Part shown: positions 5,782-27,902 of the stretch, piece after piece
Layout of the letters: each line of letters starts with the position of its first letter
Position numbering within the stretch: the stretch's first letter is position 1
From: Schmidtea polychroa
Taxonomy: Eukaryota
Length of the DNA stretch: 64,000 bases
Assembly (NCBI GenBank): GCA_044892525.1
Contig: CM097885.1
Location: forward strand, 2,916,001-2,980,000
Direction of reading: 5' to 3'
The notes under the pieces: generated by a model
Seen by the model: the letters and a program-made list of their open reading frames with translations, nothing else
Database searches by the model: none
Told to the model about the DNA's origin: nothing
Program-made: the position numbers and the translations under genes

Positions 5782-5847
<66 letters not shown>

Positions 5848-5949
5848 TTACGACATATTGAGTGTGAGTAGTACCCTTGTGACTTGTTGAATGTGAGTAG
5901 TACATTTGTGTGCAGTACCCATAGGGGGACAGAATATCTTGTCGGATAG

Positions 5950-5981
<32 letters not shown>

Positions 5982-6199
5982 TATAATAATAATAATAATA
6001 ATAAAACTTAGAAAATAATAATATGTAATCAACGATTTAAACAAAATTATATTATTACGTATTCGATAATTAAAACAAAAATTATTAGTTCTAAAAATAT
6101 TTGGCATCGTTCTAAAAATATTAGGCATCGTTCTAAAAGTATGACGTAATCGTTCTAAAAATATTAGGCACCATTCTAAAAATATTTGGCATCGTTCTA

Positions 6200-6999: not shown

Positions 7000-7138
7000 C
7001 TAATAAAATACTTTTACACATCAAATTATTAAAAAAAAAAAATCAAAGAAATAAAACTGATAATTATAAAACGAAAAAGAGACTTTACAATAATTTCTAT
7101 TTTACAAAAATTCAAACAAGTCCGATCACAGAATTAAA

Positions 7139-10100: not shown

Positions 10101-11097
10101 TTTTTAACATTTATAATTGCTCCTTTAGATTTCAAATCTGCAGGTGTACGAATGTAACTATGACCAGATAGACGACAAATAGGAGCAAATTTAGTCAGAA
10201 TGAAATCGATCTCTAAGATATTAATTACTCTCCAGCCACTACCTAAATAGGTAAACTTTTCAATTTTTTCGTTTAACTTATTAACCCCCTCAATTAAAAG
10301 TTATCCGAAAAGATCTCGGCTTTATTTGAAAAGTAGTTGTCACGGATTTCCCCATCTTTTTCAAATCTTATAAGAATAGCGAATTGAATTTTGACGCTAC
10401 CCATGTTATTTATTTCAGTTGTTAACTTTTCAGTGATCCTATCCGTTATTATAATTTTAATTAATTGTGAATCGGCAATATCAAATCGAATAGTTCGAAT
10501 GGCGCCATTTAAATTTGATTCTATTATCGGCTCAATCACTAAAGATGATCCACCTATTTGATTTATAGTATTTATAGTATTATCATTATTTATATTTTCA
10601 TTTATAGTATTTATAGTATTAATATTATCATTTATAATATCATGATTTATAGTATATATAATATTATTACATTCGTCATCACTGAGTAGAATGACTTCAT
10701 TTTTAATAATTTCGTCGTCACTGATCTCAATGACTTCAGTTTTTATAATTTTATTTTTAATTTTAGACACCCTATGTTCAGCAGGTCTTTTATTAGATTT
10801 CTTTTTTGTGTTATTATTTAAAATATTTACAATTTCAATGTTATTCTTATTTATTATTTTAAACAGTTCTTGTTTATTTGTTTTGAAAGAATTTAAGTGC
10901 TGAGAATGTTGACTATAAAATTCCTTATACCTTACACTCTGGGAAGTTTTGCATATGGGGCAAATAAAAAAGTTGATGCCATTAAAAGGTTGGCGATAAT
11001 ATTTCTTCATATTTTTGTGGCATATCAAACTATGTCCGATTGACGATACACAGTATCGTGGGTATAATGGACCTGATAAATTATAAATATATATCAA
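7139..11097 (-). pseudogene. pPolB of Polinton A with a single 1-nt frameshift near 10297
   Basis: ORF 10294-11097 ends FSDNF*; adding one T gives FSDNFLIEGVNKLNEKIEKFTYLGSGW, collinear with the 1329-5300 protein. ORF 7139-10135 has all Exo/Pol motifs (YSDFES, DINNLYG, KLYNNSLYGK, GDTDSF). The 5' end is uncertain. Confidence 0.88.
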
Positions 11098-11227
11098 ATA
11101 TATTTATAAATTATTGAAAAATATTAATCATAAAAAGTGTATTCATAATGTAATTTTATTGTAGAGTTATTGCAATGTTTTTATTCAATATTATTATCAT
11201 GTATTTATTGATATTTATATGGGGCAT

Positions 11228-11395
11228 TTATTTTTCTATTTTAAACATTAATTTATCATGACTCCCATTTCGATAGTTAGTTTGAATATCGAAATAAACA
11301 AACAATTTGTTTTTGATATTTTTATATTTAATTATTTTGGGTACTTACTTTATAATTATATATCTGACAGTAATATGACAATTATAAGTGACAAT

Positions 11396-11449
<54 letters not shown>

Positions 11450-11564
11450 TTGTGCTAATATCGATAAATTTATTTTGGACAAAGTTCGTTATTTTCTCTA
11501 TTTGATTCTCATCGTTTCGTTTCTAATTTCATGTCAAAAACTTAGTATTATTATTATTATTATA

Positions 11565-11621
<57 letters not shown>

Positions 11622-12010
11622 CATTGTCACTTATATTTTTCATATTACTGTCAGATATATAATTATAAAGTAAGTACCCAAAATAATTAAATATAAAAAT
11701 ATCAAATACAAATTGTTTGTTTATTTCGATATTCAAACTAACTATCGAAATGGGATTCATGATAAATTAATGTTTAAAATAGAAAAATAATAATATTAAT
11801 ACTAAGTTTTTGATAATAAATTAAAAGCGAAACGATGAGAATCAAATAGAGAAAATAAGGAACTTTGTCCAAAATAAATTTGTCGATATTAGAACAAATT
11901 CAATAATATTTACATTAAACTCATCACATGTAAATGGACAAAGTTCGTTATTTTCTCTATTTGATTCTCAACGTTTCACTTTTAATTTATTATCAAAAAC
12001 TTAGTATTAT
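11228..12010. repeat. Compound inverted-repeat region upstream of Polinton A pPolB
   Basis: ~11228-11445 is inverted at ~11546-11790. The loop (~11447-11548) is inverted again at ~11798-11900 and partly repeated directly at ~11935-12010. Confidence 0.85.
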
Positions 12011-12015
12011 TAATA

Positions 12016-12077
<62 letters not shown>

Positions 12078-12199
12078 AATATAAAATACGGTTTCAATGT
12101 ATGTATGAGAATATTGATTGTTGAAAATTTAAATTGTTTCAATAAAATGGAGATTATTAAATTAAATTTTGACTTGTTGGATTGAAACTATATAATAAC

Positions 12200-12223
12200 T
12201 ATATTATTATTATTATTATTATG

Positions 12224-12309
<86 letters not shown>

Positions 12310-12337
12310 GATTATTATTATTATTATGATTATTATG

Positions 12338-12426
<89 letters not shown>

Positions 12427-12455
12427 GATTTTTATTATTATTATTATTATTATGA
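12200..12455. repeat. (ATT)n microsatellite
   Basis: Near-pure ATT run. Similar runs at ~5783-5845, ~13345-13420, ~21990-22050 and ~59320-59380. Confidence 0.95.
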
Positions 12456-12667
12456 TCAGAAGACAATAGTTGCATGCTGACTGCAAACTATATGACGATA
12501 GAAAAAAAAATTAGCATAAGTATGTATATACTGTATATTTTATATACATACTTATATACATCATATACTGACATTATAGTATTAATATTTATTTATATAC
12601 ATTTAAAGCTTATAAAATAGACTTAAAAATAAACTTTATAAAAAATATACTTAAAAATAAATTAATA

Positions 12668-13078
12668 CTAACAAGTCTCCTCCAAATCTGTTTCCTCCCC
12701 AATAGAAACGGGGGCATTAATTTTTCTTTCCTCCTCAATAGAAACGGTGGCATCATTTTCTGTATCAATAATAATTTATTAAATAATTTAATAAATAAAT
12801 AAATAAATTTACCTAAAACATCGTCCTCAATAATAATAATTGAAGCATCGTCATCATCTTCAATTGTTATTGGTTCTAAGACAATAATAATATTAATAAC
12901 TCAAATTTAAAAAATTCACCGAAAATATGTTCCAAATCCAACAGTTCTTCATTTTCAGACACATCATACCAATCTAAATTATCTGAAAATAAATAATTAG
13001 AAATATTAATAATAATAATAATAAATTACCATTGCTGTTCGTTAAGAGAGCACGTAAAATATTACTGGAATTGTTCAT
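12668..13078 (-). CDS. Predicted 4-exon acidic microprotein (~88 aa), function unknown
   Basis: Exons 13078-13030, 12982-12920, 12875-12813 and 12759-12668 join through three phase-1 GT-AG introns (47, 44, 53 nt) into one open frame MNNSSNILRALL...DLEETC*. Confidence 0.6.
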
Positions 13079-13342
13079 CGAATTTTTGGATTTTGATTTT
13101 TCAGAGACAACTTTACGAACTTATATAAATAATAAGTTTATATAAACCTGTAAAATTGACATTTTAAACAAATATTTATTCTAATTACTTGCGAATCCGG
13201 TCAGTCTTAGAATAAAGTACAATTAAATTTATTATTATTATTACCATTACAATTACTATTAATCATGTACGGATCATGCACCGTGCATGACTGAATTTTT
13301 TAATATTCTAATAATATAAAACATATTTAAAAATAATAAAAC

Positions 13343-13423
<81 letters not shown>

Positions 13424-13473
13424 CATAATAATAATTATAAAATAATAAAAACACATTTTTATAAAAACATTTA

Positions 13474-13853
13474 TTATTTAATAGACATAAGCCATCCTAA
13501 ACAATGTTGTCCGCACGTACGAGTTAAAGGGTGTTGATACATTGTTTTATTATATACAATAGGTTTGCCCATCGTTTGTAGTTTCGAAACCAATAAAGCA
13601 GGATAATAGAAACCCATAGGATCGAATACATGTATCTTATCTGGTTTCATATAGATTGCAATCCAATGCTCTCCGCCGAGATGAGATGAATGGGTATTGA
13701 CGATTATGGCTTGATTATTTTTCAAAAATGGTATTTTATCGAGAGGAAAAACTCCTAAAAATTCATTTCCTAATATTTGTTTTCCAATTCGATTAACCTG
13801 AACAGAACTATTTTAATAAATTAAACAGTATAAAAAAAAACAACTTACTCCAT
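13474..13853 (-). CDS. Adenain-like cysteine maturation protease (2 exons, ~112 aa)
   Basis: GEHWIA (His), VFDPMG (Asp), YQHPLTRTCGQHC (Gln/Cys). ATG GA at 13853-13849 plus a 41-nt GTAAGT...TAG intron (13848-13808) gives MDSVQVNRIGKQILGNEFLGVFPLDK. Confidence 0.88.
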
Positions 13854-13880
13854 GACAACTTTCTGTATTTCTGTATACAT

Positions 13881-15104
13881 TTATACCAGAACGGTTCTAT
13901 TTGCAGTAATTTGAACTTCATTTTCAAATACTCCATATATTATAACATGCACAGGTTCTGTAATAGCTTTTGCAAACTTTATATCTAATCGTAAATTTCC
14001 ATTTTGAGGTAATTGACTCTGATTCAAATCAAAATCTGGGGCCAAAACAAATGTAAAGAATGGATATTTGGATTTGAATTCTTCAAGAGTTATGCCGCAA
14101 TTCAAATTTTTATCTAAATATCCCATATTTCTAACAATACTCTGCATATATGTAGCACAGTAATTGTCACTATCGAAATCTTGAGTATATGTTTCTCGAT
14201 AATCAGTATTTTTCGACAAAGTTAGAGATGTAACACCAAAGGTTTTGAAAATTGAGCTGGAGGCACTATATGAACCATTATATTGTGCTTCACCTTGAAA
14301 TGTTACCAGAATAAAGTTTGGCATTCTTCTATCTCCAAATATTTGTTCCTTATAGAAGGAAGAAGCACCTTTGGCTATTGCAAATGAAACAATTTCTTTT
14401 GTTTTCAGAGGATAGATTGCATGCTTAGAATTAAGACCCAACTGATGACCTGCTAATACCGACGGATCAACTCGAACTCTTCTTACTAGTAATTTTGCAT
14501 CAACTAATTGACATATTGGTTGACCAGCACCACTAGTTAATGATAAAGAAGAATCGGTTCTTTTCAGTCTAATGTGTACATTGACTCCTGGAAGTAAATA
14601 TTTTGGTTGATCCATAAAATCGAGTTGTAATGATGAACACATGGTGAAAATCTTTGAGCCTTTAATCCATTTTTTCCGTTCGTCATCACTTGCTGCATAA
14701 CCCATAGGAGTAAGACATGTATTTTTGGTGTCGGTATTATAATTTAAAATAGTTTCTATTATCGCCTTGTGGATATATGTATTGTTGCCACCTTCAATCT
14801 TGATATTATTAAATCCAAGAATAGCATCTTTAAAAAGTGTATGAAACAAAAAATTATTAGGTATTGTAGCATCAGCATCACCCAAAGCCTTTTTATCTTT
14901 ATCTATAACCTTGATTTGAACAGTCAATAAAGTATCATTCAAATCTAAATATTCTGTTTGAGAACCATTGATGTAAAATTCTACATCATTTCTACTATCG
15001 GTAATTGAATTCATAGGAAAAACTTCCTCAAATGCCCCAAATTCTATTACAGCCTGGGGCGATGGTCTATCAAATATGCATAATTCAGATTTACCACAAA
15101 TCAT
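13881..15104 (-). CDS. Major capsid protein (double jelly-roll), Polinton A
   Basis: 407 aa. KSELCIF...EFYI.G...EYLDLNDTLL start and GNLRLDIKFA...VIIYGVFENEVQI end are typical of Polinton major capsid proteins. Lies next to the protease. Confidence 0.88.
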   Translation of the reverse strand: MICGKSELCIFDRPSPQAVIEFGAFEEVFPMNSITDSRNDVEFYINGSQTEYLDLNDTLLTVQIKVIDKDKKALGDADATIPNNFLFHTLFKDAILGFNNIKIEGGNNTYIHKAIIETILNYNTDTKNTCLTPMGYAASDDERKKWIKGSKIFTMCSSLQLDFMDQPKYLLPGVNVHIRLKRTDSSLSLTSGAGQPICQLVDAKLLVRRVRVDPSVLAGHQLGLNSKHAIYPLKTKEIVSFAIAKGASSFYKEQIFGDRRMPNFILVTFQGEAQYNGSYSASSSIFKTFGVTSLTLSKNTDYRETYTQDFDSDNYCATYMQSIVRNMGYLDKNLNCGITLEEFKSKYPFFTFVLAPDFDLNQSQLPQNGNLRLDIKFAKAITEPVHVIIYGVFENEVQITANRTVLV

Positions 15105-15469
15105 TTTGCAAATATAGTTCCATGTCCTTTCATTCGTTTGTTTATACGTGATATTCCATGTCTTTTACGTTTTGGAGCTGGAGCTGGAGCTGGAGGTTTT
15201 TCTTTTTGAAACATGCCTGCAACCCCGGGTAAAACTTTCCCTAATTCAGCTAAAGCATTTGATTTTAGAGATGGTAATATTTTCTGTTCATTCATAATAA
15301 CATCTTTTGCAGTTTTCATACCAAAACTACCAATACGTTTAAGAATAGGCAATGCAAATCTACCAGTTGTTCTCAACCATCCCGATCCGTACTGTTTACC
15401 AATAAAATATGGTAATTCACCACCAGATTGGCTGTCACTATACATACTAATAATATCAGAATTAGCCAT
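15101..15469 (-). CDS. Small virion core or membrane-active protein (PZ-like)
   Basis: QSGG / QYGSGW motifs followed by an amphipathic basic helix (WLRTTGRFALPILKRIG) and a basic C-terminus. Overlaps the penton and capsid genes. Confidence 0.65.
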   Translation of the reverse strand: MANSDIISMYSDSQSGGELPYFIGKQYGSGWLRTTGRFALPILKRIGSFGMKTAKDVIMNEQKILPSLKSNALAELGKVLPGVAGMFQKEKPPAPAPAPKRKRHGISRINKRMKGHGTIFAK

Positions 15470-16529
15470 CTACTTTACGAAAATGTAATGTCAAATGAGT
15501 TTTTGAACCTTTTGGAAAGTTTATAAGTTTTCCACTATCGTCACGAATATTTATTTCTATATTGTTTATACATGAGCTTGCTATTGGTAAATACATGGGA
15601 TTATCGATATTTATATTGACAACTTCATCATGTTCATATTTTCCAATCCATACCGATTTCAAAAGAGGAACACTGGAATCACCAACAATTATGGGTTCGA
15701 TAATGTTAGTATATATGAACATTTGTTGATGATGTTCTAGTATTCTTGGTTTGCGTATACCAGTCGATTTTTCTCTATATTTTTGCTTATCTAATCCAAG
15801 TGAATTTGCCAAATTTTTATCAAATGTAACTTCGCAAATATCCTCATTCAAACTGAAGGTAAACATCAAATCTTTCACAATTTCCAAATTTTTAAATATG
15901 TGTGAACAATTGAACTTTAAATATTTAAGTAATACATCAAGTTTATCAAAATATAATTCATCAGCAAAGGTGAATGATTCTTCAACTTCATCATTATACG
16001 ACACATATATTTTGATTTCTTCTTTCACTATACTGTTTGCTTCAAATAGATTAAAACGTAATAAATACTCGGTCTCCATAACAATATTTTTCAGCTTATT
16101 GCAACCCATTCGTTTGGCATCTTCAATAGTTTCGAATGTTATTGTAAATGGTTTAAAATCACAACTGATATTTAATCCATCCTTGTAAAATATATAGCAA
16201 TGCGAATCTAATATTTGGTTCGGAATATGATATGTTTTATCATAATTACTAATAATAAAGATACCGCTACATGTTTTCACAATATTCCTTTTGAAATCAA
16301 TCTTACATTGACTATAAAATGGGAATGTGTTGTACACGAATGTAAAATCTTGCAGTGCAACTTCCCAGTCACCATTTAGAGAAATCGGATTCTGGAGATT
16401 GACCATAAATTTACTGGCTTGATTGTCTGGATGAATTAATGGGCAACTATTGCTCGGTAAAATAGTATAAAAATTCACTTTACTAGGTCCTTTGCTGATA
16501 TCCATGACGGGTTTTGATAACCATGCCAT
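15462..16529 (-). CDS. Minor capsid protein (penton)
   Basis: FYTILPSNS...PDN..SKF...L..PISLNGDWEVAL at the N-terminus; YTNIIEP..VGDS.VPLL...IEINIRDDSG.LINF.....LTLHF at the C-terminus. Confidence 0.85.
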   Translation of the reverse strand: MAWLSKPVMDISKGPSKVNFYTILPSNSCPLIHPDNQASKFMVNLQNPISLNGDWEVALQDFTFVYNTFPFYSQCKIDFKRNIVKTCSGIFIISNYDKTYHIPNQILDSHCYIFYKDGLNISCDFKPFTITFETIEDAKRMGCNKLKNIVMETEYLLRFNLFEANSIVKEEIKIYVSYNDEVEESFTFADELYFDKLDVLLKYLKFNCSHIFKNLEIVKDLMFTFSLNEDICEVTFDKNLANSLGLDKQKYREKSTGIRKPRILEHHQQMFIYTNIIEPIIVGDSSVPLLKSVWIGKYEHDEVVNINIDNPMYLPIASSCINNIEINIRDDSGKLINFPKGSKTHLTLHFRKVDG

Positions 16530-17104
16530 TTGACATAGTATTGTTTATCCTTGCCGACCTTTTTAGTTTTCAATATTTTTTGAATTCTAAATACCTTTGG
16601 AGGAGGAATGACTTGTAATTCCTGCTCATAAAATTTCCCTTGTACAATATTATTATCACTGTCTTTGATGACATACATTACAGGATTCTGTTTAGTATTT
16701 ATTTTTGAAATTACAAAGACTTCATCACTCCAATTTGTATCAAAATTTTTAATAAATGGTGATGCACTAATTTTACTAATTCTAACACGATCACCGACTT
16801 TATATTTAGGTTTTGCAATTTTTACAGATTTCTTAGAATAGATTGTTTTTGATGTAATATCAACCGGTCTCAATCCATTCAGTCCTCGATGTGATGAATG
16901 ATTATAACTTGTTATTATTTTCGGTAAAGCATTTACCCATTTTTTATTACCTTGATGCACGAATAATTTCTTTAATCTATCTCTCAGTGTTCGATTAAAT
17001 CTTTCAACATGGGCAGCTTTGTATTGAGAATGTACCGAGTAGTGATTTATTTTCAGTTTATCGAGGATTTGCTTAACTTTGCTATTGTAGAATTCTTTAC
17101 CTAA

Positions 17105-17154
<50 letters not shown>

Positions 17155-17542
17155 CCAAATCTGTTTGCAAGTTATTAGGATGTCCATCTTTAAATAAAAT
17201 ATTAATTGCCTTTGACATTTCATCTGCAGATTTTGCCTTGACTGGTATTGCTCGTGCAAACCTGCTGAATACATTAATACATGTTAAAATATATTTATTC
17301 CCATTGTTAATTTTCGAATACGGTATCATCTCCATCAAATCCATTTGCCATAAATCGTCAATACCAAATGTTTTATAGGCTCTTGTTGGAAATCTTTTCC
17401 GCATTGGTTTGTTCAAACTGTACGCAAGCTGATCTGATAACCACTTCTGGGTTTCTTTTTTCGAATTCGGAACTCTTTTCTTTAATTTTGCCACTCCACC
17501 GAAACCGGCTTCGTCTTCTGGGTTCGTCCAAATCTTCTCCAT
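16475..17542 (-). CDS. Retroviral-like (rve) DDE integrase with C-terminal chromodomain; contains a 54-nt intron
   Basis: WQMDL, LQTDLG|KEFYN, VERFNRTL; chromodomain IQKIL...YYVKWHGY..PSWI. The poly-Ile stretch corresponds to a GT...AG intron at 17154-17101. Confidence 0.92.
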
Positions 17543-17603
17543 TACAGCAAGAAGATTTAAAATTAAAATTTAAATTAGGTAATGAAGGATTAGCACCCAT
17601 TGT

Positions 17604-18137
17604 TTATGATTGATTTCCTACAACTCCACCTAATAATGATAATGCCAGAGGTATCAATGCACCAATAAATCCACCTTGTTGTTTATATATAATTTTCCTC
17701 ATTTGCTTACGATTTTTATTATTTACTAATGATAACAAAGGTTTCCTATGTTTGCTCAATAAATGCTTTTTTGATTTACTGATTTTAATTTTGCCTTTGA
17801 CTACTTTAAGTATAATATTGAGTAAATCATCGACAACAAAATTTGGGAATGATTGCAATATATTCATTCTTTTCATACTCGGGGCCTTTAACAATGCATT
17901 AAAAAATGGAAAACTGCGATGATTTTTAATTACTTTATTACCGGCTTTACGGGTTTTACGGGTTTCACGTTTAGGTTTAGGATTTTTCGAAATAAGATTC
18001 ATTGCAGAGAAATTTTCAGTTACAAGTTTTTTAGATGGTGTATAACTAGTTGTTGGTGGAACCTTTGGAACTTTAATACTCTTTTTAATACTTTTTCTTA
18101 ATTTCCTAATATTTTTCACCCTTGCTTTTAGAAACAT
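17604..18137 (-). CDS. Basic core-like Polinton protein with C-terminal QQGGF plus hydrophobic tail
   Basis: Lys/Arg-rich, 177 aa, ends YKQQGGFIGALIPLALSLLGG. Lies between the ATPase and the integrase. Confidence 0.7.
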   Translation of the reverse strand: MFLKARVKNIRKLRKSIKKSIKVPKVPPTTSYTPSKKLVTENFSAMNLISKNPKPKRETRKTRKAGNKVIKNHRSFPFFNALLKAPSMKRMNILQSFPNFVVDDLLNIILKVVKGKIKISKSKKHLLSKHRKPLLSLVNNKNRKQMRKIIYKQQGGFIGALIPLALSLLGGVVGNQS

Positions 18138-18155
18138 TATTATTCATAGAGGTTT

Positions 18156-18782
18156 TCAACTTTGTTTATAAACCATGGCACCTTTTGGGTTGAAAATATC
18201 TGTTTTTACTCGTAAATCATCGGGACATTGTTGTGTGAAATCAAGAAATATATATCCATGAGGTATTTTTGTAGCATCTTGAAATGCACTGATAAGAAAA
18301 TTACGATTGTTAGGGTATGCTTGACGTGCAAGAAAATCAATCACTGTTGCATCTCTAGGATTCTTAAAAATAACTAAATATTGTACATTTAAATTACGTG
18401 TTCGATGTGCACCACCTTGATGAAATAGATTTTGAGTTATAAAAATAACAGTTACACCAACGTGTCTACTGATTTTAGTAAATAAATTATTGAAATTCTT
18501 TTCTTTATTAGCTTCTTGATACAAGTCATCAATAATTATGACATCCCCCTTCTTTAGTCTACTGGACCAATTTTTATCAAATCCCTCTACTATTTTCATA
18601 TTTTTCAATTTACAGAAACTTGATTGAGTCAATCCGTGTTCTTGATAAGCACCTCGATGCCAATAAATTTTGTTAAATTTTGATTTAAATAAATGTGATT
18701 TTAGTAATTTGCAAACAAACAAAGTTTTGCCGCTACCACTTGGTCCGACTATTTGATATACAGCATCATTTCTTAGTTCCAT
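18156..18782 (-). CDS. A32/FtsK-like genome-packaging ATPase, Polinton A
   Basis: Walker A GPSGSGKT, Walker B IIIDD, FTKISRH, ITQNLF, YLVIFKNPRD. Confidence 0.93.
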   Translation of the reverse strand: MELRNDAVYQIVGPSGSGKTLFVCKLLKSHLFKSKFNKIYWHRGAYQEHGLTQSSFCKLKNMKIVEGFDKNWSSRLKKGDVIIIDDLYQEANKEKNFNNLFTKISRHVGVTVIFITQNLFHQGGAHRTRNLNVQYLVIFKNPRDATVIDFLARQAYPNNRNFLISAFQDATKIPHGYIFLDFTQQCPDDLRVKTDIFNPKGAMVYKQS

Positions 18783-18899
18783 TTTTAATATTTATTTAAA
18801 AATTAATTTTGTTTATATCGTAAAGAATAAATTGATTTCATTACTCTATAATATAATATATATATATAGATATTTGATTTTTATAAATATTCAGTAGAA

Positions 18900-19412
18900 A
18901 TGTTGACAAATATTAATTATAGAGGTCGTGTGTCTTTGGAAACTGTTGGTATGATGAATTTCCCCAAGTGTAAACCACAACAATATGTCGACAAAACTGG
19001 AAAATATACTATTATATTTTTCAAAAATGGTAAATGTCGTATAATGGGTTGTAAGAAGCCTATCGAATTCAAGAATTTGCAATATAATATCAAAGATATT
19101 CAAGTTCAAAGTCTTACTATAGCTACCAAGGTTGAACAATCTATTAATTTGAATAATTTAGCAAAGTTATTAGATGGAGATTGTATATATGAGCCTGAAT
19201 TATTTCCCGCTCTGCGTTATACAAAATATAATCCACTATGTGTAAATATATTTTCGAGTGGTAAAATAGTTGTACTAGGTATTAAAAATTTAGATTTTCA
19301 TACTATTGTTGAAGGAATTATAAATGATGTAAAGAATTTGATTGGATCTTTAACAATTTCTTCAAATATAAGTAATGAGGATTTGCTTGAATATTTATTC
19401 AACAATGATTGA
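18900..19412 (+). CDS. TATA-binding protein (TBP)-like protein encoded inside Polinton A
   Basis: C-terminal repeat IQVQSL...INLNNLA...YEPELFPALRY...VNIFSSGKIVVLG matches TBP YEPELFPGLIY...LIFVSGKVVLTG. N-terminal repeat IIFFKNGKCRIMG matches LIFSSGKMVCTG. Confidence 0.88.
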   Translation: MLTNINYRGRVSLETVGMMNFPKCKPQQYVDKTGKYTIIFFKNGKCRIMGCKKPIEFKNLQYNIKDIQVQSLTIATKVEQSINLNNLAKLLDGDCIYEPELFPALRYTKYNPLCVNIFSSGKIVVLGIKNLDFHTIVEGIINDVKNLIGSLTISSNISNEDLLEYLFNND

Positions 19413-19773
19413 ACATGAAGGTAACTGTTTTTATTTTAAATTTACTGATTTTTGTTTAGAAACTATACTAAAAATTTTGATTGATAAAATTGAAGATTTT
19501 TATCCGAATTTGAACAATTCCTTAATGTATTGTGCTCCAGAAGTTGTGTTTTACAAAATTTATGAAATAACTGGAATAAATGTAATAGATTTAATTCATA
19601 TGGATCATGCTACGATTACATGTTATACCGATGATGTTGAAAATTGTGATTTTTGTAAAAATAATATGCAGAATACTTGTGGGGATGATAGTTGTACATG
19701 TTTTGTAAATCTACAGAAACGAGAAATAATTCATGCATTACTTGTGGAATTGCGAAAAAATGTATTGTTGTAA
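19405..19773 (+). CDS. Cys-rich hypothetical protein overlapping the TBP-like stop codon
   Basis: In-frame ATG at 19405 overlaps the TBP-like 3' end; CDFC...CGDDSCTC. An apparent homologue follows the second TBP-like gene. Confidence 0.65.
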   Translation: MIEHEGNCFYFKFTDFCLETILKILIDKIEDFYPNLNNSLMYCAPEVVFYKIYEITGINVIDLIHMDHATITCYTDDVENCDFCKNNMQNTCGDDSCTCFVNLQKREIIHALLVELRKNVLL

Positions 19774-19975
19774 TAAAATATAATTATATTTGTTTTGTGA
19801 TAACCTTAATTAACCTATAATATTTCTTTGTGTACAATAAATCATTTCAGACTTTGTTATTTAGCATAAAATGAACTAGTTGATCACGTTTTGATCATGC
19901 CTGTCACTTGAAACTTGTTTACAATGAAATTAGTATAAAATATCTGGTTCAAATTATTAAATATTATAACTACAA

Positions 19976-20567
19976 ATGGATAATCAAATTACAGGTTTGT
20001 TGTCGTTTACACATATTCCATTTATTAGTTTTTTAATCTAGGAGTTTTGAAGAGAAAAAATGCAGATGCCGCTCAGGAATTCGGAAAACGGAAATTTAAA
20101 GAAGCGACATTATCCTTGGAAACCTTGGTCAATGTTCGAGTGGATACAAAAAAGCCAGTCGAATTCATGCAATACAAACTAAATTATTTGTATTGTCCAA
20201 TTTCCTATACATTTAAGGTAAGTTTCTATAAATTATTTTGGATTTTATTATTATTATTTATTGTTAGGAACCAGTAACTCTGGAAAAATGTTTCTACAAT
20301 GTGAGACTTTCCAAAATCAAGTTTCATGACAAGATGCTATTGGGACAATTATTTCAGAGGATCAATGAAAATATTGAATTTGATGATGAAGATATGTTCA
20401 TTAGAAACGATTTGGATATGATTCCCAATGGTGGTAAGATGAGCAAAATAACCTGCATGGTTACCATATTAATTCAAGGGTATAATGTAAGCAGAGACCG
20501 AATCAAACCAATTTGGAAAATTATAAAAGCCGAAGATAAGTTTGAAGAGGAACATTGTTCATGTTAA
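19976..20567 (+). CDS. Predicted 3-exon protein (~164 aa), possibly an OB-fold ssDNA-binding protein
   Basis: Exons 19976-19994, 20042-20217 and 20268-20567; GT-AG introns of 47 and 50 nt join the two track ORFs in frame. The function is a guess from the C-terminal beta-strand pattern. Confidence 0.65.
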
Positions 20568-20639
20568 ATTTATTTAATACATCTTTATTAGTGTTTTGGT
20601 GTTTTTAAATCATTGAAAATAACTAAAGTTTCAAATTTA

Positions 20640-21024
20640 TTAATCTTCAATACAATCTCTTTTCATTATATTTTCAACAATATGATCAATACAATTAGTA
20701 GAAACAATAGATTCATCTTCTTTAGATTCATTTGGTAATTTATCTGTTGTAGAATTCTCAATACATGACTTAAGTTCTTCACTAGGCAAATCAGTATATT
20801 CATCTTCTTGTTGGGAAATATTTTCAGATTCATATGACATATCATCTTCATTAATTTCATCGTCTGAATACGGCCATTTTAATTTCTCTGGAACATTCGT
20901 AAATTCTCTAATTTTTACATTAGATATTTCCTCTAATTTTTCAATCAAAAAGTTGATTATATATGCTAAATAAAAAAAAAAGAATTAATAAACATAAAAT
21001 TCATATTTTACCTTTTTCCGACAT
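20640..21024 (-). CDS. Predicted 2-exon acidic hypothetical protein
   Basis: ATG TCG GAA AAA G (21024-21012), 46-nt GT-AG intron (21011-20966), then in frame into ORF 20640-20948. Confidence 0.55.
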
Positions 21025-21984
21025 GGTTGAAAATAATTAAAATGAAAAAATAATTATGTTTATACTATTATTCAAAAGCAACAAGATGATCGATAGATAG
21101 ATTATAAGAAAATTAGATATTTCAACACGATACATATAATAAAAAGACAAGCAAACTTGCAATGATATTTAACGTTTCAGTTTTTACATTTTTTTTTTTT
21201 TAAATATTTATTTCAATTATTTCGACAACACAAAAAGTGCCAATTTTTTTTATACTAATTAATTTTCAGCCTAACCTACAACTTTTCACAAAAATCCAAA
21301 AAAAAATGAGACCTTTTTAATGAACCATTATTCAATATAATCTATCGAAGGTAATCCTTAAAATTCCAAATTTAAAATGTTCGCAAATGTAAAGCATGTT
21401 CAATGTATATTAATGAGTATCATATTATAAACATTTATTTCTTTACCTTTGTTATTAATACTTTGAATATTGTAAATAATAAAACTATGTATCAAATAAT
21501 AATATTCAAAATAAACCAAATTTACAAACTACCGCCCAGTCCCTTCGGGGCGGGCGGTGGGCGGGCGGCGGTTGTGTATGTCGATGATTTTAATTTTTAT
21601 TAAATGCATTTGTTTGATTTCAGAATTCGATTTGTGTGACTAACCTTGTTAAATTTGAGTTGATGTAAATATTAATAATAATAATAATAATATTAATAAT
21701 AATAAAGTAATTTCTTATGAAGATTTATATTAAAGTGATTCAAAGCTGATTTATGAAATTGGTTGAACCTTTTAAATGTAATTATCCAACAATAAATATT
21801 TAATGTAATAATGATCAAATTCACTTAACAAGGCAGTGCCGACAATTTGTGAGAGTCGACAAACATCGATATATTACTGATTAATAATCTTCAAAGTCTC
21901 TTTTCAATTCAATGGATATTATAATCAGTGGTGAAATTGGAAGAAATAAAAGTTCTTATAATAATAGTAATTATTTGTAAAAAT

Positions 21985-22053
<69 letters not shown>

Positions 22054-22209
22054 GGAAAAATACTGAATTATTATTGATTAAAATATTTGAAGGGATAACA
22101 TGTGGTATGAAATTATGCGTTAATAATCGATTACATCAACGGAAATTCACATGATTTGCACTATGAACTGTTACTAAATCATGTGTGAATGATATCAGTA
22201 AATGATATC

Positions 22210-22327
22210 AGACCTTAAAAAAAAAAATTTTTGACCTTGACCTTAAAAATTTGACCTTGACCTTAAAAAATTAGACCTTGACCTGTCCTGGATGTGACAT
22301 GTCCTGGAGGTGACACATCTTACTACT
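22210..22327 (-). repeat. Right terminus of Polinton A with repeated TGACCTTGACCT motifs
   Basis: Ends ACTACT. TGACCTTGACCT at 22232 and 22252, variant at 22273. Tandem GTCCTGGA..TGACA repeats. Confidence 0.85.
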
Positions 22328-22689: not shown

Positions 22690-23517
22690 TACTTTGTATA
22701 TTTATTACTTTGTATATTTCCCGAATTTATCTTTTGAAATCATTCCCTCTTTTAATAAATTTTTTGAAATCTTTAAAATATCAGAATCTAAATTATTATG
22801 ACCTGCTTTTTTTAGCTGACAAGAGTTTTCTTAATTCAATAAAAAGATTTATAGGGTTAATCCCATCACCTTTAGTTTCTAGTTCTTTTAAATGTTTCTT
22901 TAAATCTTGAATATGTTTTGCTTTTTGACCAGCTTTTACTAATTCTATTAAATTTAAATATTTTTTAATTTCTTTAATATTATCGGTTGGATAACCACAA
23001 ATTAATCTATAAAAATCATCTGTAAATTCCCAGTCTAAAAATTCATTATTATAAACATTTAGAGAGTGGAGGCGTGATTGATTTTCTGCATTTGAATATA
23101 GGGTAAAGATTTCACTATTAATTGTTATTGTTTGAAATCCTTTGATTGTAAGATTAAATGCAGGTTTAATTGTAGGACTCAAGTTTGGATTAATTTTAGG
23201 ATTTAGTACAAGAGGTTTTGTTTTTAAAAGCATTTCTTCTTCATCAACACCAGAAATTCTTCTACGCTTTCTTTGATTCCTTTGATCTTCGAACCTCTGA
23301 TCTTCTATAGCTTTCACTTCTATAAATTCTATAGCTCTTCTTGGTTTGGGGGTTTTGGTTCTAGGGTTTTCAAGGCTTTAAGAGTTGGTTCTTGTTGTTG
23401 TAATATTTCTTCATTTAATACTATAGATTCAAGATTTTGGGTTAAATCTTTTTTATTATACTTGTCTTGTTCTTGTTGTATTTTTTTTAAAAGAGCTAAT
23501 CTTTCTTCATATACCAT
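22690..23517 (-). pseudogene. Fragmented hypothetical Polinton B protein
   Basis: ORFs 23329-23517 and 22796-23317 are in different frames. The C-terminus continues KKAGHNN after another frameshift. Confidence 0.45.
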
Positions 23518-23539
23518 TTTTTATACCATTTTATGGGAT

Positions 23540-24065
23540 GGGATTTACTCTCTCGAAGGGCTTCAAGTATAAACCTTTACCATTTTTAACTTTACAGGTG
23601 CAGCCATTCTTTAAAGATTTGAGGATTTTTTTTAAAAGCATCTTTCCCCTCAAATGATTCTGGAATTTGGTTTTTAAAAAAATCATTTAAACCTCTACCT
23701 TTATAAGGATCAAGGTATAGGCCTGCTCCTGTTACACCCTTTCCCTTTGCTTTTGCTTCACCCTTCATTTTATCAATTTCAGTTTGTAGTTTTTCTTTTT
23801 CTAGGTCTGTCTTTTGAGCTTCTTTAGCTTTTTGAACTGTGGTTGCAATTCCTCCGGCTATTCCAGCAGCACCTGATAAACCTGCAATAATTGCTGGTAT
23901 TAAAGCTGCTAGAGGAAGAAATCCGCCTTGCTTGCTTCCCTTTGCTTGCTCCTCTTTGATTTTCTCTTTTACATGTTTTCCAATAAAATATTTTTTACCA
24001 GAGATTACTACTGATTTATTCTTGTCTGAATTTATTAGTTCTTGCAAAGATTCTTCAGTTGTCAT
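23540..24065 (-). CDS. Core-like protein with KQGGFLPL hydrophobic segment and GxGLYL repeats (3' frameshift)
   Basis: KQGGFLPLAALIPAIIAGLSG...GAGLYLDPYKGRGL; a second GKGLYLKP motif appears in a shifted frame. Confidence 0.6.
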
Positions 24066-24111
24066 TTTATAATAAATAAAAAAGAGAATAAATAAAAAAA
24101 AGAGAATAAAA

Positions 24112-24915
24112 ATGGATGTTCGGAGACCTGCGGATACCTGGAAACCGATTTTAAATAGACACAAGAGTAAATTTAATAATAAGGTATTTCCTGATAATTT
24201 TAGATGTTTAATTGTTGGATCTTCTGGATGTGGAAAGAATGTTCTTCTTTTGAGAATGCTACTTGAAGATGGTTTCTTGGATTATAATAATTTTATCTTT
24301 TATTCTACAACCATAAATCAACCAGAATTACAACTTTTGAAATGTGGATTTGAAAATAAATTAACTAAAAAAGCTATAATTGATATTTTTAAAAATCAAC
24401 TCGAATGTCCTGAAGAAGTTTTTCATCCTTGTGATATGGTTGATTGGTATAAGGAAAAGATTTTAGAATCAGATATTAGTAATAAAAATGATTACATTTA
24501 TCAGGGTGAAGGTATTAAAGTTTTATTCTCTAATAAACCTGAAGATGTTTTACATTGTGATTTACTTCCTAGGAATAAAAAGAATTTAATTATATTTGAT
24601 GATGTTGTTAATATGAAAAACCAAGAGATTCAAAAGAGTTACTTTACTCGAGGACATCATAATAATTGTAATGTTATTTATATATCTCAAACTTATTATG
24701 CTTTAGATAAAAACTCTATAAGAAATAATTCTAATTGTTTTATATTTTTTAAATTAGATAAGCGTGATAAGAATATGATTTATAATGATTTATTTTCAAA
24801 TGTTGAACCCGATAAGAACATGTTTGACATGTTTGTTGATAATCATTGGAAAGAAAAATATAATTATATTTATCTTGATAGGGAAGAAGCTAAAATGTGG
24901 AAAAGTCTATTCTAA
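24112..24915 (+). CDS. A32-like packaging ATPase, Polinton B (motifs partly degenerate)
   Basis: GSSGCGKN (GKT expected), LIIFDD, FTRGHHNN (RGRH expected), ISQTY, SIRNN. Confidence 0.88.
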   Translation: MDVRRPADTWKPILNRHKSKFNNKVFPDNFRCLIVGSSGCGKNVLLLRMLLEDGFLDYNNFIFYSTTINQPELQLLKCGFENKLTKKAIIDIFKNQLECPEEVFHPCDMVDWYKEKILESDISNKNDYIYQGEGIKVLFSNKPEDVLHCDLLPRNKKNLIIFDDVVNMKNQEIQKSYFTRGHHNNCNVIYISQTYYALDKNSIRNNSNCFIFFKLDKRDKNMIYNDLFSNVEPDKNMFDMFVDNHWKEKYNYIYLDREEAKMWKSLF

Positions 24916-24938
24916 GGGGTCTATTCTAGGGGTCTATT

Positions 24939-25748
24939 CTAGAAATCTGTTTTCTGTAGTTCCTTATTATAAAATCTACCTAATATTTTTTCATTATTTA
25001 AATCGATGATGCTATATGTTATTGGAATTGTATAATGTATTTTATTTATAATAAAAATTTCATTTGTCCATTTTGCTGTGAATCCTTTTTCAAATTTATT
25101 TTTATATTTAAATATTCTTACACGTTGACCAATTTTAAACTTTGGTTTTTCAATAACATCATTTTCAACATTTACCACTCTAACTGTTTCAGGATTTAAG
25201 GAAGCATTTAAAGGTGTTGATTTTATAGAACTATGTACATCATTATTATATTCATTTACAATCTTTTGTAACAATTCATTGTTCCATTTTTGTTTTCCAA
25301 TAGCAGTAAAATATTTCCACATTTTATTTTTTAATGTTCTATTTAATCTTTCAACTACGACTGCTTTTCCTTCGTTTTCTGTTGAATATAATTTAATATC
25401 ATTTTCATTTGAAAACTTGTAAAAAACTTTGTTATAAAATTCTGTTCCTTTATCACACCATAAATATTTTGGAATTCTTTGATATTCTTCAAATATATTT
25501 TCAAATGCTTCTGTAATAGAATATCCTGTTTCATTTTCTAAACATCTTGCAAAAGCAAATCTTGTATATAAATCTATTACAGTTAAAATTATTTTATATT
25601 TTTCAGGGTCTGATGATTTGGACATAAAGACTAAATCAGCAGACCATGTTTGATCTTTTTCATGTACTTGAACTTGCAAATATTTTTTATTTTTTCTAAA
25701 TTCATGGTGCAATTCGTTGGCATATTTTATTTGTGATTCTGTTGGTTG
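24939..25748 (-). CDS. rve DDE integrase of Polinton B
   Basis: ANELHHEFRK, WSADL, WCDKGTEFYN, VERLNRTLK, KFKIGQRVRI, GRFYNKELQ. No own ATG; in frame with the upstream PLA2 domain. Confidence 0.9.
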   Translation of the reverse strand, partial: QPTESQIKYANELHHEFRKNKKYLQVQVHEKDQTWSADLVFMSKSSDPEKYKIILTVIDLYTRFAFARCLENETGYSITEAFENIFEEYQRIPKYLWCDKGTEFYNKVFYKFSNENDIKLYSTENEGKAVVVERLNRTLKNKMWKYFTAIGKQKWNNELLQKIVNEYNNDVHSSIKSTPLNASLNPETVRVVNVENDVIEKPKFKIGQRVRIFKYKNKFEKGFTAKWTNEIFIINKIHYTIPITYSIIDLNNEKILGRFYNKELQKTDF

Positions 25749-26357
25749 TTAATTTGTAGAATTAGTCTTGGATATATTCTCGAGGGATCTTTCAACGTCT
25801 GCTTGTTCAATAATCTTTTTATTAGCAACATCTTTTGCTATCCTTGGTAGACCTGCTCCTATGAAGATCTTACCTTTCATTGCTAATTTAACTAGAGCTC
25901 TTTGAATCTTTTCTTGAGTTGATGGATTTTCTATATTATTTAAATCATGTATTAAATTAACATCTGCAACATGTCTATCTCTAAGATTTGTTGAGTTGTA
26001 AGCAATATCATGTTTTAAAGCTGCTTGATCAATTCTATTTATTGGTTCTTGTCCTTATTTAGGATTATTATTTTCATCTAGACGAATATCTAATCTAGTT
26101 CCTGGTCCAGTATAATTTTGCGAGAATAAATGTCTTTCACCTGGATACTTTTCAGAGGTGAAAGGTTTTATTATTGTAGATGTAAGATTTGAAGATTGAA
26201 GATCTCCACCGGTCTGTTGTTGTGCTTCTTTCTCTATTTGGGGTTGGTGTTGTTGTGTTTCTTTCTCTGTATGCTTTTTAGTTTTTAAGTGTTTAGCTTT
26301 GTGATATTTTGTTACTTCACAGTTGCACACTTGGCATTGATAATAATGAGAGGTCAT
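25749..26357 (-). pseudogene. Zn-finger plus parvovirus-type phospholipase A2 domain with an internal TAA
   Basis: CQVC...H..H-type finger; NYTGPGT Ca-binding loop. Past TAA 26057-26055 the frame reads GQEPINRIDQAALKHDIAY...DRHVAD (catalytic HD). Confidence 0.85.
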
Positions 26358-26556
26358 TTATTTGATCATATTTTGTGTTTACTTTTCTTAGTTCTTGTTT
26401 TAAGATTCTCATCTTTACTAATCTTCTATCGGCAATCTCAACTGCTCTACGATATTGTTCTCGATAGTATTCATTTGCAGCTGTTAATTCTTGAATATAT
26501 TTCACTGGATTCTGCATTCTTTCTAGGCGATTATTTTTTGCTGTTTCAGTATCCAT
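26317..26556 (-). CDS. Small coiled-coil hypothetical protein
   Basis: 79-aa ATG ORF packed between the capsid and PLA2 genes on the same strand. Confidence 0.4.
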   Translation of the reverse strand: MDTETAKNNRLERMQNPVKYIQELTAANEYYREQYRRAVEIADRRLVKMRILKQELRKVNTKYDQINDLSLLSMPSVQL

Positions 26557-26609
26557 TTTTAGGTATTAATTTTTAGGGTGTGTTGGGTTTATGGGTGATG
26601 GGTTAGGGA

Positions 26610-27902
26610 TTATAGATCTCCTCTAACATTTTCAACAATTGAAATCTTTCCACCTGATAGTTTCATTTCTATTTTCTTTTCTTCTAGGATTAATACATGT
26701 ACTTTGGCTTTAAAATTTGAATCCTTTGTTATGTGAAGTGTAATGTCTACATTATTTATAGCTAGTCGATCATCTTGATCTGAAACATTTATACAAAATA
26801 TAGAATATAAATTTTTGAAATCTTCTAGGCTTAATTGTGGTTCAACTTTAAAATCTTGACATGTTTCAATATAATTTAGATATGGGAATATGTTTTCATT
26901 TTTTTCAATATTAAATTCCATTCTATTTATTGGATAATAAGAACTATTTAATTGAATTTGGATTGTTTTTAAATTATCATCTCCAATCTTTTGTATAAAT
27001 AGGTTGTTATTTTTTTGAAAGGAAGAATCTGTTTCTTTGAATCCAATTAAAATATATCTTGGTCTGTATGCTAAATTTGCAACCTTTATAGAATAAGTTG
27101 AACCCTCTGTCATGGAAAATTCACTACAGATTCTATTTAAATAATTTACATTTATAGACTTGTTGGAATTTAATCTTTCAAGGAGTTTAATTTCAGCAAG
27201 AGGGTTTAATGTCCATTCGGGTACATGTAATTCAAGTGTTGATAATTTTAGTTTAGCTTTTGTATCTGCAGCTCCAAAAAATAATCTTTTATCATCTTCT
27301 ACTCTGTTACAAATTAATTCTATAAAAACATTATGGAGTACACGATTATAATTTTGAAGGAATCCAAATAAATGTTTTAATTCAAAATAACCTTCAAATT
27401 TTTTAGACTTGTAGAATTCAAGTCTTTTACAATAACCATAATTCGCATCTATTCCTTCTTTATCTAAATCTCCTTTATTATTATCTGGAATCCAACCTGA
27501 TAATTCTCCATATTCATTTCTATAATCATAACCAGTTAAAATAAAATTTAACATTGTAGAATATATACCTGGATGTAATATGGTTTCAATTTCTGATGAT
27601 CCTAGTTTTAATCTCATGTTGTTGAATAAATTTGGAAAGAAATTATTTTCAAGGGTTTTATTTTTGTTGACTTCAATTTCTAATTCAATTTTGTAATATA
27701 ATTTTGCATTACAAATGTCTATAGGATTTGAAGTTTGAAGGGATTGAAAGACTATATCACCTGCACGATTTAAGTTTGCAATAGATCCTGAAGTTGGAGA
27801 TATTTTAAGTACATCATTTTTCTTGATATCATGAGTAAATTCTTTATTATTATCGAGATTAAATTTATTTTTTTCTTGAATTTTAAGATTTATATTATTC
27901 AT
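26610..27902 (-). CDS. Major capsid protein (double jelly-roll), Polinton B
   Basis: 430 aa; NLNRAGDIVF, NNFFPNLF..MRLKLGSSEIE...HPG..STM, PRYILIGF, LNSSYYP, SIFCINVS. Unlike the Polinton A capsid protein. Confidence 0.8.
   Translation of the reverse strand: MNNINLKIQEKNKFNLDNNKEFTHDIKKNDVLKISPTSGSIANLNRAGDIVFQSLQTSNPIDICNAKLYYKIELEIEVNKNKTLENNFFPNLFNNMRLKLGSSEIETILHPGIYSTMLNFILTGYDYRNEYGELSGWIPDNNKGDLDKEGIDANYGYCKRLEFYKSKKFEGYFELKHLFGFLQNYNRVLHNVFIELICNRVEDDKRLFFGAADTKAKLKLSTLELHVPEWTLNPLAEIKLLERLNSNKSINVNYLNRICSEFSMTEGSTYSIKVANLAYRPRYILIGFKETDSSFQKNNNLFIQKIGDDNLKTIQIQLNSSYYPINRMEFNIEKNENIFPYLNYIETCQDFKVEPQLSLEDFKNLYSIFCINVSDQDDRLAINNVDITLHITKDSNFKAKVHVLILEEKKIEMKLSGGKISIVENVRGDL

Follow-up and report, generated by a model that had tools for sequence, protein, structure and literature searches.

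The analysis of the window, a 64,000-nucleotide stretch of Schmidtea polychroa DNA, outlined a canonical Polinton (hereafter Polinton A) that carries an intact gene for a shortened homolog of the TATA-binding protein (TBP). The gene (18900-19412, plus strand) runs from ATG to TGA and encodes a protein of 170 amino acids, here termed short TBP. Related short TBPs make up a conserved family carried by a widespread Polinton lineage, of which the gene is a regular accessory component, hugely amplified in this animal genome. The sequence of the protein and its predicted fold make an element-specific mechanism of TFIIB and Pol II recruitment plausible.

The identification of this open reading frame as an intact, divergent TBP homolog had been put forward in a preliminary description of the region, and was borne out by both sequence and structure searches. 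The translated gene matched the Pfam TBP family (PF00352) with 63.1 bits, well above the cut-off of 22.9 (E 2.2e-17), and a sequence search against the PDB returned 37 matches at E<=10, 35 of which were TBP chains, topped by archaeal TBPs with E-values of about 2e-14. The two remaining PDB matches were at chance level (E 0.15 and E 1.3), and at the sequence level the Pfam and PDB matches to TBP are far beyond chance. A profile of the short-TBP family matched the PDB TBPs with an E-value of 1.4e-21. All the motifs named in the preliminary description were located in the translation, with KPQQ at residues 25-28, FKNGK at 41-45, YEPELF at 97-102 and IFSSGK at 117-122.

The preliminary description had credited the protein with both TBP repeats. 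This holds in full for repeat 2 (residues about 64-150), which is complete; repeat 1 (residues 1-55) is present in reduced form, and came to light only in the profile-profile alignment and the predicted fold. Sequence HMMs align solely residues about 61-150, corresponding to repeat 2, and do so to both repeats of canonical TBPs. The comparison of a 110-member short-TBP alignment with an alignment of 19 two-repeat TBPs using hhalign, on the other hand, produced a full-length match over 150 columns (prob 99.4, E 1.6e-21) that includes repeat 1. The AlphaFold2 model of the 170-residue protein (pLDDT 95.4, pTM 0.83) returned 44 PDB matches at E<=1e-3 in Foldseek searches, and every listed one was a TBP, with TM values of 0.55-0.67. 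In this predicted structure the short TBP keeps the TBP saddle. Lobe 1 consists of strands 2-10, 28-31, 37-41 and 45-51 and a sole helix of five residues (13-17), and lobe 2 of strand 65-77, helix 84-91, further strands up to residue 128 and a helix spanning 134-156. No helix is found between strands 45-51 and 65-77, the location of helix H2 of repeat 1, and in the hhalign alignment about 13-20 residues are absent there, in agreement with the earlier suggestion that H2 of the N-terminal repeat had been largely deleted. With repeat 1 lacking H2 and having an H1 of five residues, the protein represents a truncated variant of the TBP fold. Its C-terminal tail comprises 20 residues of acidic and hydrophobic character.

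The profile alignment highlighted both conserved and changed residues. Phe41, Phe102 and Phe118 align with three of the four intercalating Phe residues of TBP. The fourth position, that of the first Phe in repeat 1, is occupied by Tyr29 and varies among Y, V, I, F, C, S and A across the family. The short TBPs hence depart from the four-intercalating-Phe pattern that characterises TBP, with three positions conserved and one variable. Residues F41, M49, E100, N116 and F118 are invariant among the 110 family members, and at least 90% of them share E98, P99, F102, P103, A104 and R106. The best conserved stretch of the family is the stirrup (Y-E-P-E-L-F-P-A-L-R, residues 97-106), the acidic residues of which are present in the 170-residue protein (E98-P99-E100-L101-F102). 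The central Asn of repeat 1 is matched by N4, and in repeat 2 a nearly invariant Ser71 takes the place of the corresponding Asn. In strand S4, Val/Thr residues are substituted by Arg47, present in at least 90% of the family, and by the invariant Met49. Three nearly invariant Cys residues are also characteristic of the short TBPs. Given Ser71, Arg47, Met49 and the variable first Phe, the short TBP may not bind TATA at all. In cellular TBP, the Glu residues of the stirrup contact TFIIB/TFB, and helix H2 of repeat 1 is the docking site for TAF1-TAND2, Mot1/BTAF1 and Brf1 and provides part of the TFIIA contact. Folding, or DNA contact in the case of F102, could nonetheless account for part of the conservation of the stirrup in place of TFIIB binding.

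The short TBP gene is embedded in an element whose gene content, termini and target duplications are those of a canonical Polinton. The body and right end of Polinton A (6992-22327) are collinear with five other genomic copies at 97-99% identity, and its left end is located outside the window. Positions 1-575 directly abut 6992 onward in all five of the other full copies, indicating that the window starts inside Polinton A and that the intervening 6.4 kb (576-6991), absent from these five copies, is a nested insertion. This nested element has long inverted ends (617-1082 and 6490-6955, 96% complementary) and a single gene, encoding a 1323-residue PolB of another lineage, the DNA of which is about 73% similar to that of the Polinton A PolB. 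The right terminal inverted repeat of Polinton A, of about 0.95 kb (21372-22327), recurs in inverted orientation at the left end of other copies: the segment 21668-22327 does so in all five full copies and the segment 21372-21711 in four of them, yielding inverted ends of about 0.66-0.95 kb. The termini of Polinton A read AGTAGTAAG...CTTACTACT, with the right terminus in the window ending in ...CTTACTACT at 22327. Target duplications of 6 bp flank all five full copies, and copy lengths range from 17.1 to 18.0 kb, with one copy of 20.3 kb.

The genes of Polinton A include those expected of a Polinton. The pPolB gene (7139-9964, minus strand) encodes a product 54% identical over 836 residues to an ORF of metagenomic locus L040 that matches Pfam DNA_pol_B_2 (E 8.8e-28), and the sole Pfam match of the window ORF itself is an Endonuclease_7 motif. 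A 112-residue stop-to-stop frame (13474-13812, minus strand), with a microsatellite at its border, corresponds to an adenain-like cysteine protease, as revealed by a tblastn match (42% identity, E 8e-21) to an ORF of locus L071 carrying Pfam Peptidase_C5. The double jelly-roll major capsid protein (407 residues; 13881-15104, minus strand) was not significantly similar in BLASTP to the Pfam-recognised capsid protein of the other element (E 0.076), and its identity was settled by fold search: an AlphaFold2 model built on an eight-sequence alignment (pLDDT 77.3) had the capsid proteins of an iridovirus, PBCV-1, mavirus and Sputnik as its top Foldseek matches (E 8e-15 to 4e-11). A conserved 355-residue ORF without a Pfam family (15462-16529, minus strand), with homologs in 11 of 80 metagenomic TBP loci, is possibly a minor capsid or penton protein, judging by its position. 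It is followed by a 355-residue integrase with an rve domain and a C-terminal chromodomain (16475-17542, minus strand). The Pfam scores of these two domains (rve 25.5 bits, Chromo 21.2 bits) are below cut-off in the window copy and exceed the cut-offs in relatives at 34-69% identity; in the window copy, an (ATT)n run is also translated into a stretch of poly-Ile. A conserved basic ORF of 177 residues (17604-18137, minus strand), again with no Pfam family, has homologs in nine of the 80 metagenomic TBP loci. The A32/FtsK-type packaging ATPase (208 residues; 18156-18782, minus strand) matches Pfam Pox_A32 with 28.6 bits (cut-off 22.8). No RNA polymerase family was detected by Pfam among the element ORFs of at least 120 residues. 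The identification of Polinton A as a canonical Polinton is based on the joint presence of pPolB, protease, double jelly-roll capsid protein, rve-chromodomain integrase and A32-type ATPase, together with its termini and target duplications.

The short TBP gene is hence situated, as previously described, between the ATPase gene and the right terminus of the element, 2.9 kb inside the right end. It opens a group of rightward genes, divergent from the ATPase, from which it is separated by an AT-rich gap of 117 bp (18783-18899), as read from the sequence. This is the only gap here, as the minus-strand genes between 18782 and 13881 adjoin or overlap one another. The gap is a candidate two-way promoter; TATAAA-like words are present there on both strands, but carry no weight given their chance expectation in DNA of 27% GC. 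The end of the TBP gene is overlapped by a Cys-rich ORF of 132 residues (19375-19773, plus strand), which matches no Pfam family above noise, has no tblastn match in the 80 TBP loci and shares no conserved columns with the ORFs adjacent to TBP elsewhere. Further to the right, an ORF at 20301-20567 resembles by eye the small TBP-adjacent ORFs of loci L032, L038 and L045, a resemblance that received no BLASTP support and was discarded. With regard to expression, contigs of four runs were compared with the element: those of run X1 span the whole TBP ORF, and run X2 presents unencoded, poly(A)-like ends (17 A after 20593 on the plus strand and 17 T before 18112). The RNA status of the runs is a guess and the library type is unrecorded, and neither observation was counted as evidence of expression.

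The genome searches, which covered 781 Mb (the four largest contigs measuring 93-272 Mb), revealed a large number of copies of this gene. The best 150 of 4084 first-look candidates, a figure that does not equate to copy number, were all full-length, stop-free and 98-100% identical to the 170-residue protein, differing by only about 1%; having been taken from the top of the ranking, these scored matches are biased towards intact copies. All six fetched copies of Polinton A are collinear through the TBP gene, and at least several hundred near-identical element copies with a short TBP are present in this one animal genome. The window contains a second short-TBP paralog (59921-60406, minus strand; tblastn E 4e-49, family HMM E 5e-59, Pfam TBP E 2.7e-15), which originates from another Polinton lineage and is 52% identical to the 170-residue protein. 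At least 149 other genomic copies of this paralog are 99% identical to it over residues 22/23-162 only, and the 5' part of the paralog in the window deviates from them. In a further Polinton of the window (22796-27902), no TBP was found with either tblastn or the family HMM. A search with a eukaryote-type TBP as query identified one intron-bearing canonical host TBP and several paralogs, followed by many element copies with frame lengths of 159-229 residues; these differing lengths suggest that several Polinton lineages bear a TBP gene. The host TFIIB locus was also found (C1:8375663-8376154).

Relatives of the short TBP were readily detected in metagenomes. A protein search yielded 107 matches, mostly of 144-165 residues, from ENA, Logan, JGI and MGnify, some of them bearing JGI's automatic TBP name and none corresponding to an NCBI or UniRef entry. 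An all-against-representatives search returned 123 matches at E<=1e-10, and the size of family members was established at 145-180 residues. Matches in the protein atlas were metagenomic clusters, either unnamed or TBP-labelled, with unreliable taxa, and a cluster look-up of 10 relatives returned neither names nor organisms. IMG/VR does not show this family: a single-protein scan found no relative, and the only match in an alignment scan was a TBP of the canonical two-repeat type, on a contig resembling those of giant viruses.

The metagenomic sample assembled for comparative analysis encompassed 80 TBP loci, 36 of them of at least 3 kb. Pfam identified pPolB, an A32/FtsK ATPase or rve in 12 of the 14 long loci scanned, alongside genes for a protease and for PLA2-like, KilA-N and C2H2 proteins. 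The co-occurrence with Polinton genes, which the preliminary description had proposed as a check, was also evident in tblastn searches with the window proteins, which detected at least one Polinton gene in 34 of the 80 loci and in 25 of the 36 loci of at least 3 kb. Homologs of the ATPase, at 31-75% identity, are present in 25 of the 80 loci, usually within 1-2 kb of the TBP gene, and the order of TBP relative to ATPase adopts at least three arrangements among relatives. This variable position, together with the absence of the gene from the 22796-27902 element, characterises the short TBP as an accessory gene.

The substitution patterns of these sequences indicate that the short-TBP family is under purifying selection. 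Pairwise dN/dS values (NG86) were computed for 71 complete metagenomic ORFs and the two ORFs of the window, using 95 pairs at 60-97% amino-acid identity, and were below 0.5 in all 56 pairs with 0.05<dS<2 (median 0.19, range 0.09-0.45), the pairs being overlapping and thus not independent. A quick maximum-likelihood tree was built from 49 sequences: 26 short TBPs, of which 24 had been selected by hand among the 71 metagenomic ORFs, along with 18 unnamed two-repeat TBPs, four host TBP-family loci and one giant-virus TBP. A branch with an SH-aLRT of 99 separates all 26 short TBPs, as a clade of their own, from the host, two-repeat metagenomic and giant-virus TBPs, and the two paralogs of the window were sisters (SH-aLRT 91). 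The preliminary description had named three findings that would speak against its reading, namely a fold other than a saddle, homologs lying mostly outside Polintons as host paralogs, and neutral evolution. A saddle is instead predicted, the relatives are found among Polinton genes and the family evolves under purifying selection. The existence of several TBP-family loci in the host might still invite the interpretation that the gene is an ordinary host paralog, or a decaying host gene captured inside the transposon. The host loci, however, group with eukaryote-type TBP, outside the short-TBP clade, the gene is present in every checked copy of the element as well as in distant metagenomic Polintons, and the median dN/dS value is not that of a decaying gene, leaving this interpretation with a negligible probability. 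The attribution of the gene to the Polinton, rather than to a host that has its own canonical TBP elsewhere, can hence be upheld.

The detection of a TBP homolog in an element devoid of an RNA polymerase of its own suggests that the protein most likely operates at element promoters. In the scheme that we consider to have about an even chance of being correct, the 170-residue protein is a Polinton-encoded short TBP that recruits host TFIIB and Pol II to the promoters of the element, probably allowing the element to start transcription with the host machinery. The short TBP would sit on element promoters, such as the 117-bp region between the divergent TBP and ATPase genes, bend the DNA and, once bound, recruit TFIIB and Pol II from the host. 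In the absence of the H2 surface, it would start transcription independently of the docking partners of H2 (TAF1-TAND2, Mot1/BTAF1, Brf1 and, in part, TFIIA), and be insensitive to them. The promoter motif recognised would perhaps be other than TATA, and TFIID would be bypassed. A more specific version of this scheme, which we advance tentatively and deem somewhat improbable as a whole, portrays the protein as a minimal "one-and-a-half-repeat" TBP, found throughout a lineage of Polintons in an animal genome and in many environmental samples, with its own DNA specificity, assembling a TFIIB/Pol II complex without TFIID and beyond the reach of host TBP regulators. If true, a transposon-like virus would thereby bring its own general transcription factor, and this factor would be the smallest TBP in nature with the capacity to nucleate initiation.

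Other roles for a protein with these features can be envisaged. In essence, the TBP fold forms a saddle that bends DNA, and the short TBP might be an architectural protein that marks the terminal repeats as pPolB origins, aids integration, or condenses the genome and presents it to the ATPase. The proximity of packaging ATPase homologs in the metagenomic loci and the remodelling of the DNA-facing residues with respect to TATA-binding TBPs are both compatible with such a function, which we nevertheless regard as unlikely: conservation in the family is among the highest at E98, P99 and E100, whose counterparts in cellular TBP bind TFIIB instead of DNA, and the TBP gene varies in its position with respect to the ATPase. 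We are aware of no bona fide TBP homolog that acts in replication or packaging.

The retention of the stirrup and the loss of the H2 docking surface could also be read as the signature of a protein that binds one partner without assembling a full complex. Such a decoy or repressor would soak up TFIIB or block TATA boxes, damping host transcription, including that of defence genes, or quieting the element itself, and the very high copy number of Polintons in the genome means that dosage could matter. Selection on the saddle and on three of the four Phe residues would be superfluous in a pure TFIIB sponge, however, and a factor that poisoned Pol II initiation in general would shut down the genes of the element as well, so that we judge this role to be quite improbable. 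Since cellular TBP is used by all three polymerases, the short TBP might alternatively direct Pol III, via Brf1/TFIIIB, or Pol I to element small RNAs or termini. The cyclin repeats of Brf1 bind the same C-terminal stirrup of TBP as TFIIB. Brf1 homology domain II, in turn, docks mainly on the first-repeat side of TBP, and the loss of H2 alters this main docking surface, which makes a Pol III role very improbable; we assign the same low probability to Pol I.

Many eukaryotic DNA viruses are considered to have Polintons as ancestors or close relatives. A conserved, selected TBP encoded by the element provides a concrete handle on how the genes of Polintons are transcribed, as it predicts the existence of element-specific promoters and of a defined host partner, TFIIB. 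The short TBP also constitutes a natural deletion experiment, with a lobe 1 devoid of H2, three of the four Phe residues and changed minor-groove residues, and could reveal what in TBP is required for the nucleation of initiation. Passages of PMC8532177 describe planarian Polintons as piRNA targets that are derepressed on differentiation, and Maverick expansions have been reported in Dugesia in a preprint. With at least several hundred copies in the genome, it can be asked whether expression of the short TBP perturbs host transcription once the elements are derepressed.

The features outlined above define the relationship of the short TBP to known TBP-like factors. It shares with cellular TBP (PF00352; 1ytb, 1cdw, 1ais) the two-lobed saddle, the YEPE(L/Q)FP stirrup, the (I/V)F.SGK strand of repeat 2, three of the four intercalating Phe residues and the central Asn of repeat 1. 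It differs in its size of 145-180 residues, in the lack of an N-terminal tail, in a repeat 1 with a short H1 and no H2, in having Ser instead of the central Asn in repeat 2 and Arg/Met instead of Val/Thr in S4, and in being encoded by a mobile element instead of a single-copy host gene. The TRF2/TBPL1 proteins of animals are divergent TBP paralogs with altered DNA specificity. The TRF2/TBPL1-like host loci identified here (L131 and L132) resemble the short TBP in being divergent TBP paralogs, but the host paralogs keep two full repeats, with intact frames of about 165-215 residues.

Among viral proteins, the TBPs of giant viruses (Nucleocytoviricota) likewise represent a virus-encoded TBP fold, and the best viral structure matches of the short TBP in BFVD were to proteins of Heterosigma akashiwo virus and Terrestrivirus (E 3.5e-8 to 1e-5). 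Giant viruses encode their own RNA polymerase, and their TBPs serve the viral polymerases. The giant-virus TBP of locus L031, which has ribonucleotide reductase and a delta-type PolB as neighbours, is a 182-residue protein with two full repeats (Pfam E 2e-36), whereas the short TBP is truncated, belongs to a separate clade and is carried by an element of about 17 kb in which no polymerase gene of this kind was found. The herpesvirus vTBPs (EBV BcRF1, KSHV ORF24 and HCMV UL87) bind a variant TATT box and bring host Pol II to late promoters. They illustrate how a nuclear DNA virus without an RNA polymerase can supply a TBP-like factor for host Pol II, and by analogy may be the closest functional counterpart of the mode of action of the short TBP. 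Weak fold matches were obtained to the U58 protein of an elephant herpesvirus (E 7.8e-4) and to a BcRF1 (E 1.8e-2). The herpesvirus vTBPs in the listed matches are proteins of 440-1005 residues with extra domains, including a Pol II-binding domain, and to our knowledge have no detectable sequence similarity to TBP. The short TBP, with 170 residues, no extra domain, a preserved TFIIB stirrup and a plain relationship to TBP, is not a member of that family.

The preliminary description had considered TBP not to be a known Polinton gene, which was nearly right. A full-text literature search returned no precedent for a Polinton TBP besides a label in Starrett et al. 2021 (PMC8502044), and the terms "TBP", "TATA" and "transcription factor" are absent from the main texts of PMC11161782 and PMC10120064. 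The legend of Figure 5 in Starrett et al. 2021, which belongs to a section on non-animal datasets and depicts elements with an adintovirus-like PolB, lists a gene "similar to TATA binding proteins" and labelled TBP. The likeness extends to the type of carrier, a linear dsDNA virus or element of medium size that has an adintovirus-like PolB. The gene is known from the legend label alone, which comes with no analysis of architecture, distribution or selection in the portion of the paper concerned with it, and it may belong to the same family as the short TBP. The short TBP of Polintons joins the virus-encoded TBP-like factors, with this one bare precedent in print.

The 170-aa TATA-binding protein (TBP) of Polinton A (18900-19412, plus strand) carries a C-terminal tail of 20 acidic and hydrophobic residues (…EDLLEYLF…; residues 150-170, window 19350-19409), which forms a helix in the predicted model. 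This tail is missing in most relatives, the ends of which fall near residue 148, and is retained in the metagenomic protein P0001, which is 94% identical to the TBP encoded here. Inspected by eye at the sequence level, the tail resembles an acidic activation motif.

A GC-richer, more distant group of TBP-bearing Polintons is represented by the metagenomic loci L082, L088, L089, L090, L095 and L100. A PLA2-like gene (Pfam Phospholip_A2_4) lies immediately upstream of TBP in this group, with genes encoding C2H2 zinc-finger and KilA-N proteins close by, an arrangement that may constitute a small regulatory gene cluster.

Contigs from sequencing run X2, tentatively regarded as RNA, present two ends within Polinton A with homopolymers absent from the genome sequence: 17 T before window 18112 and 17 A after 20593. 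The former, 44 nt past the ATPase stop, would fit a candidate poly(A) site on the minus strand, and the latter, 26 nt past the stop of the ORF at 20301-20567, would fit one on the plus strand. The integrase gene of Polinton A (16475-17542, minus strand) contains, in the window copy, an in-frame (ATT)n microsatellite (17100-17150), which places ~17 consecutive Ile residues midway through the integrase core.

Polinton A is interrupted by a 6.4-kb nested element (576-6991) with long inverted ends, made up in part of 21-bp tandem units. Its sole gene encodes a 1323-aa PolB and is ~73% similar in DNA sequence to the polymerase gene of Polinton A; the element appears to derive from a different Polinton lineage and to have kept PolB alone. 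Directly past the end of Polinton A begins a second, different Polinton (22796-27902), encoding an Adeno_PX-like core protein, an A32 ATPase, an rve integrase and a double jelly-roll capsid protein that is recognised by Pfam; no TBP gene is present within it. Further downstream (39704-39801), a 49-bp unit is perfectly duplicated in tandem; it includes CCAAT-like words (…CAGCCAATCAG…).

Elsewhere in the same genome, outside the window, 13 open frames of 301-310 aa encode a single TFIIB cyclin repeat apiece, with E-values of 1e-8 to 1e-6. They form two clusters (C3:38.2-39.1 Mb and C1:23.8-24.2 Mb), away from the probable host TFIIB (C1:8375663-8376154) and the copy adjacent to it, and may be either host paralogues or mobile-element genes.

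The window's other short TBP, a paralogue with 52% identity to the first, is encoded on the minus strand at 59921-60406. No further Polinton genes were found near it, and its surroundings include a host proteasome-subunit exon (63263-63691) and, at a distance of ~3 kb, a TRAF-like gene (55446-56898, plus strand) encoding RING/zf-TRAF and then, in another frame, a MATH domain. Both 'TRAF' and 'TBP' figure among the gene labels of the adintovirus preprint of Starrett et al. (10.1101/697771).
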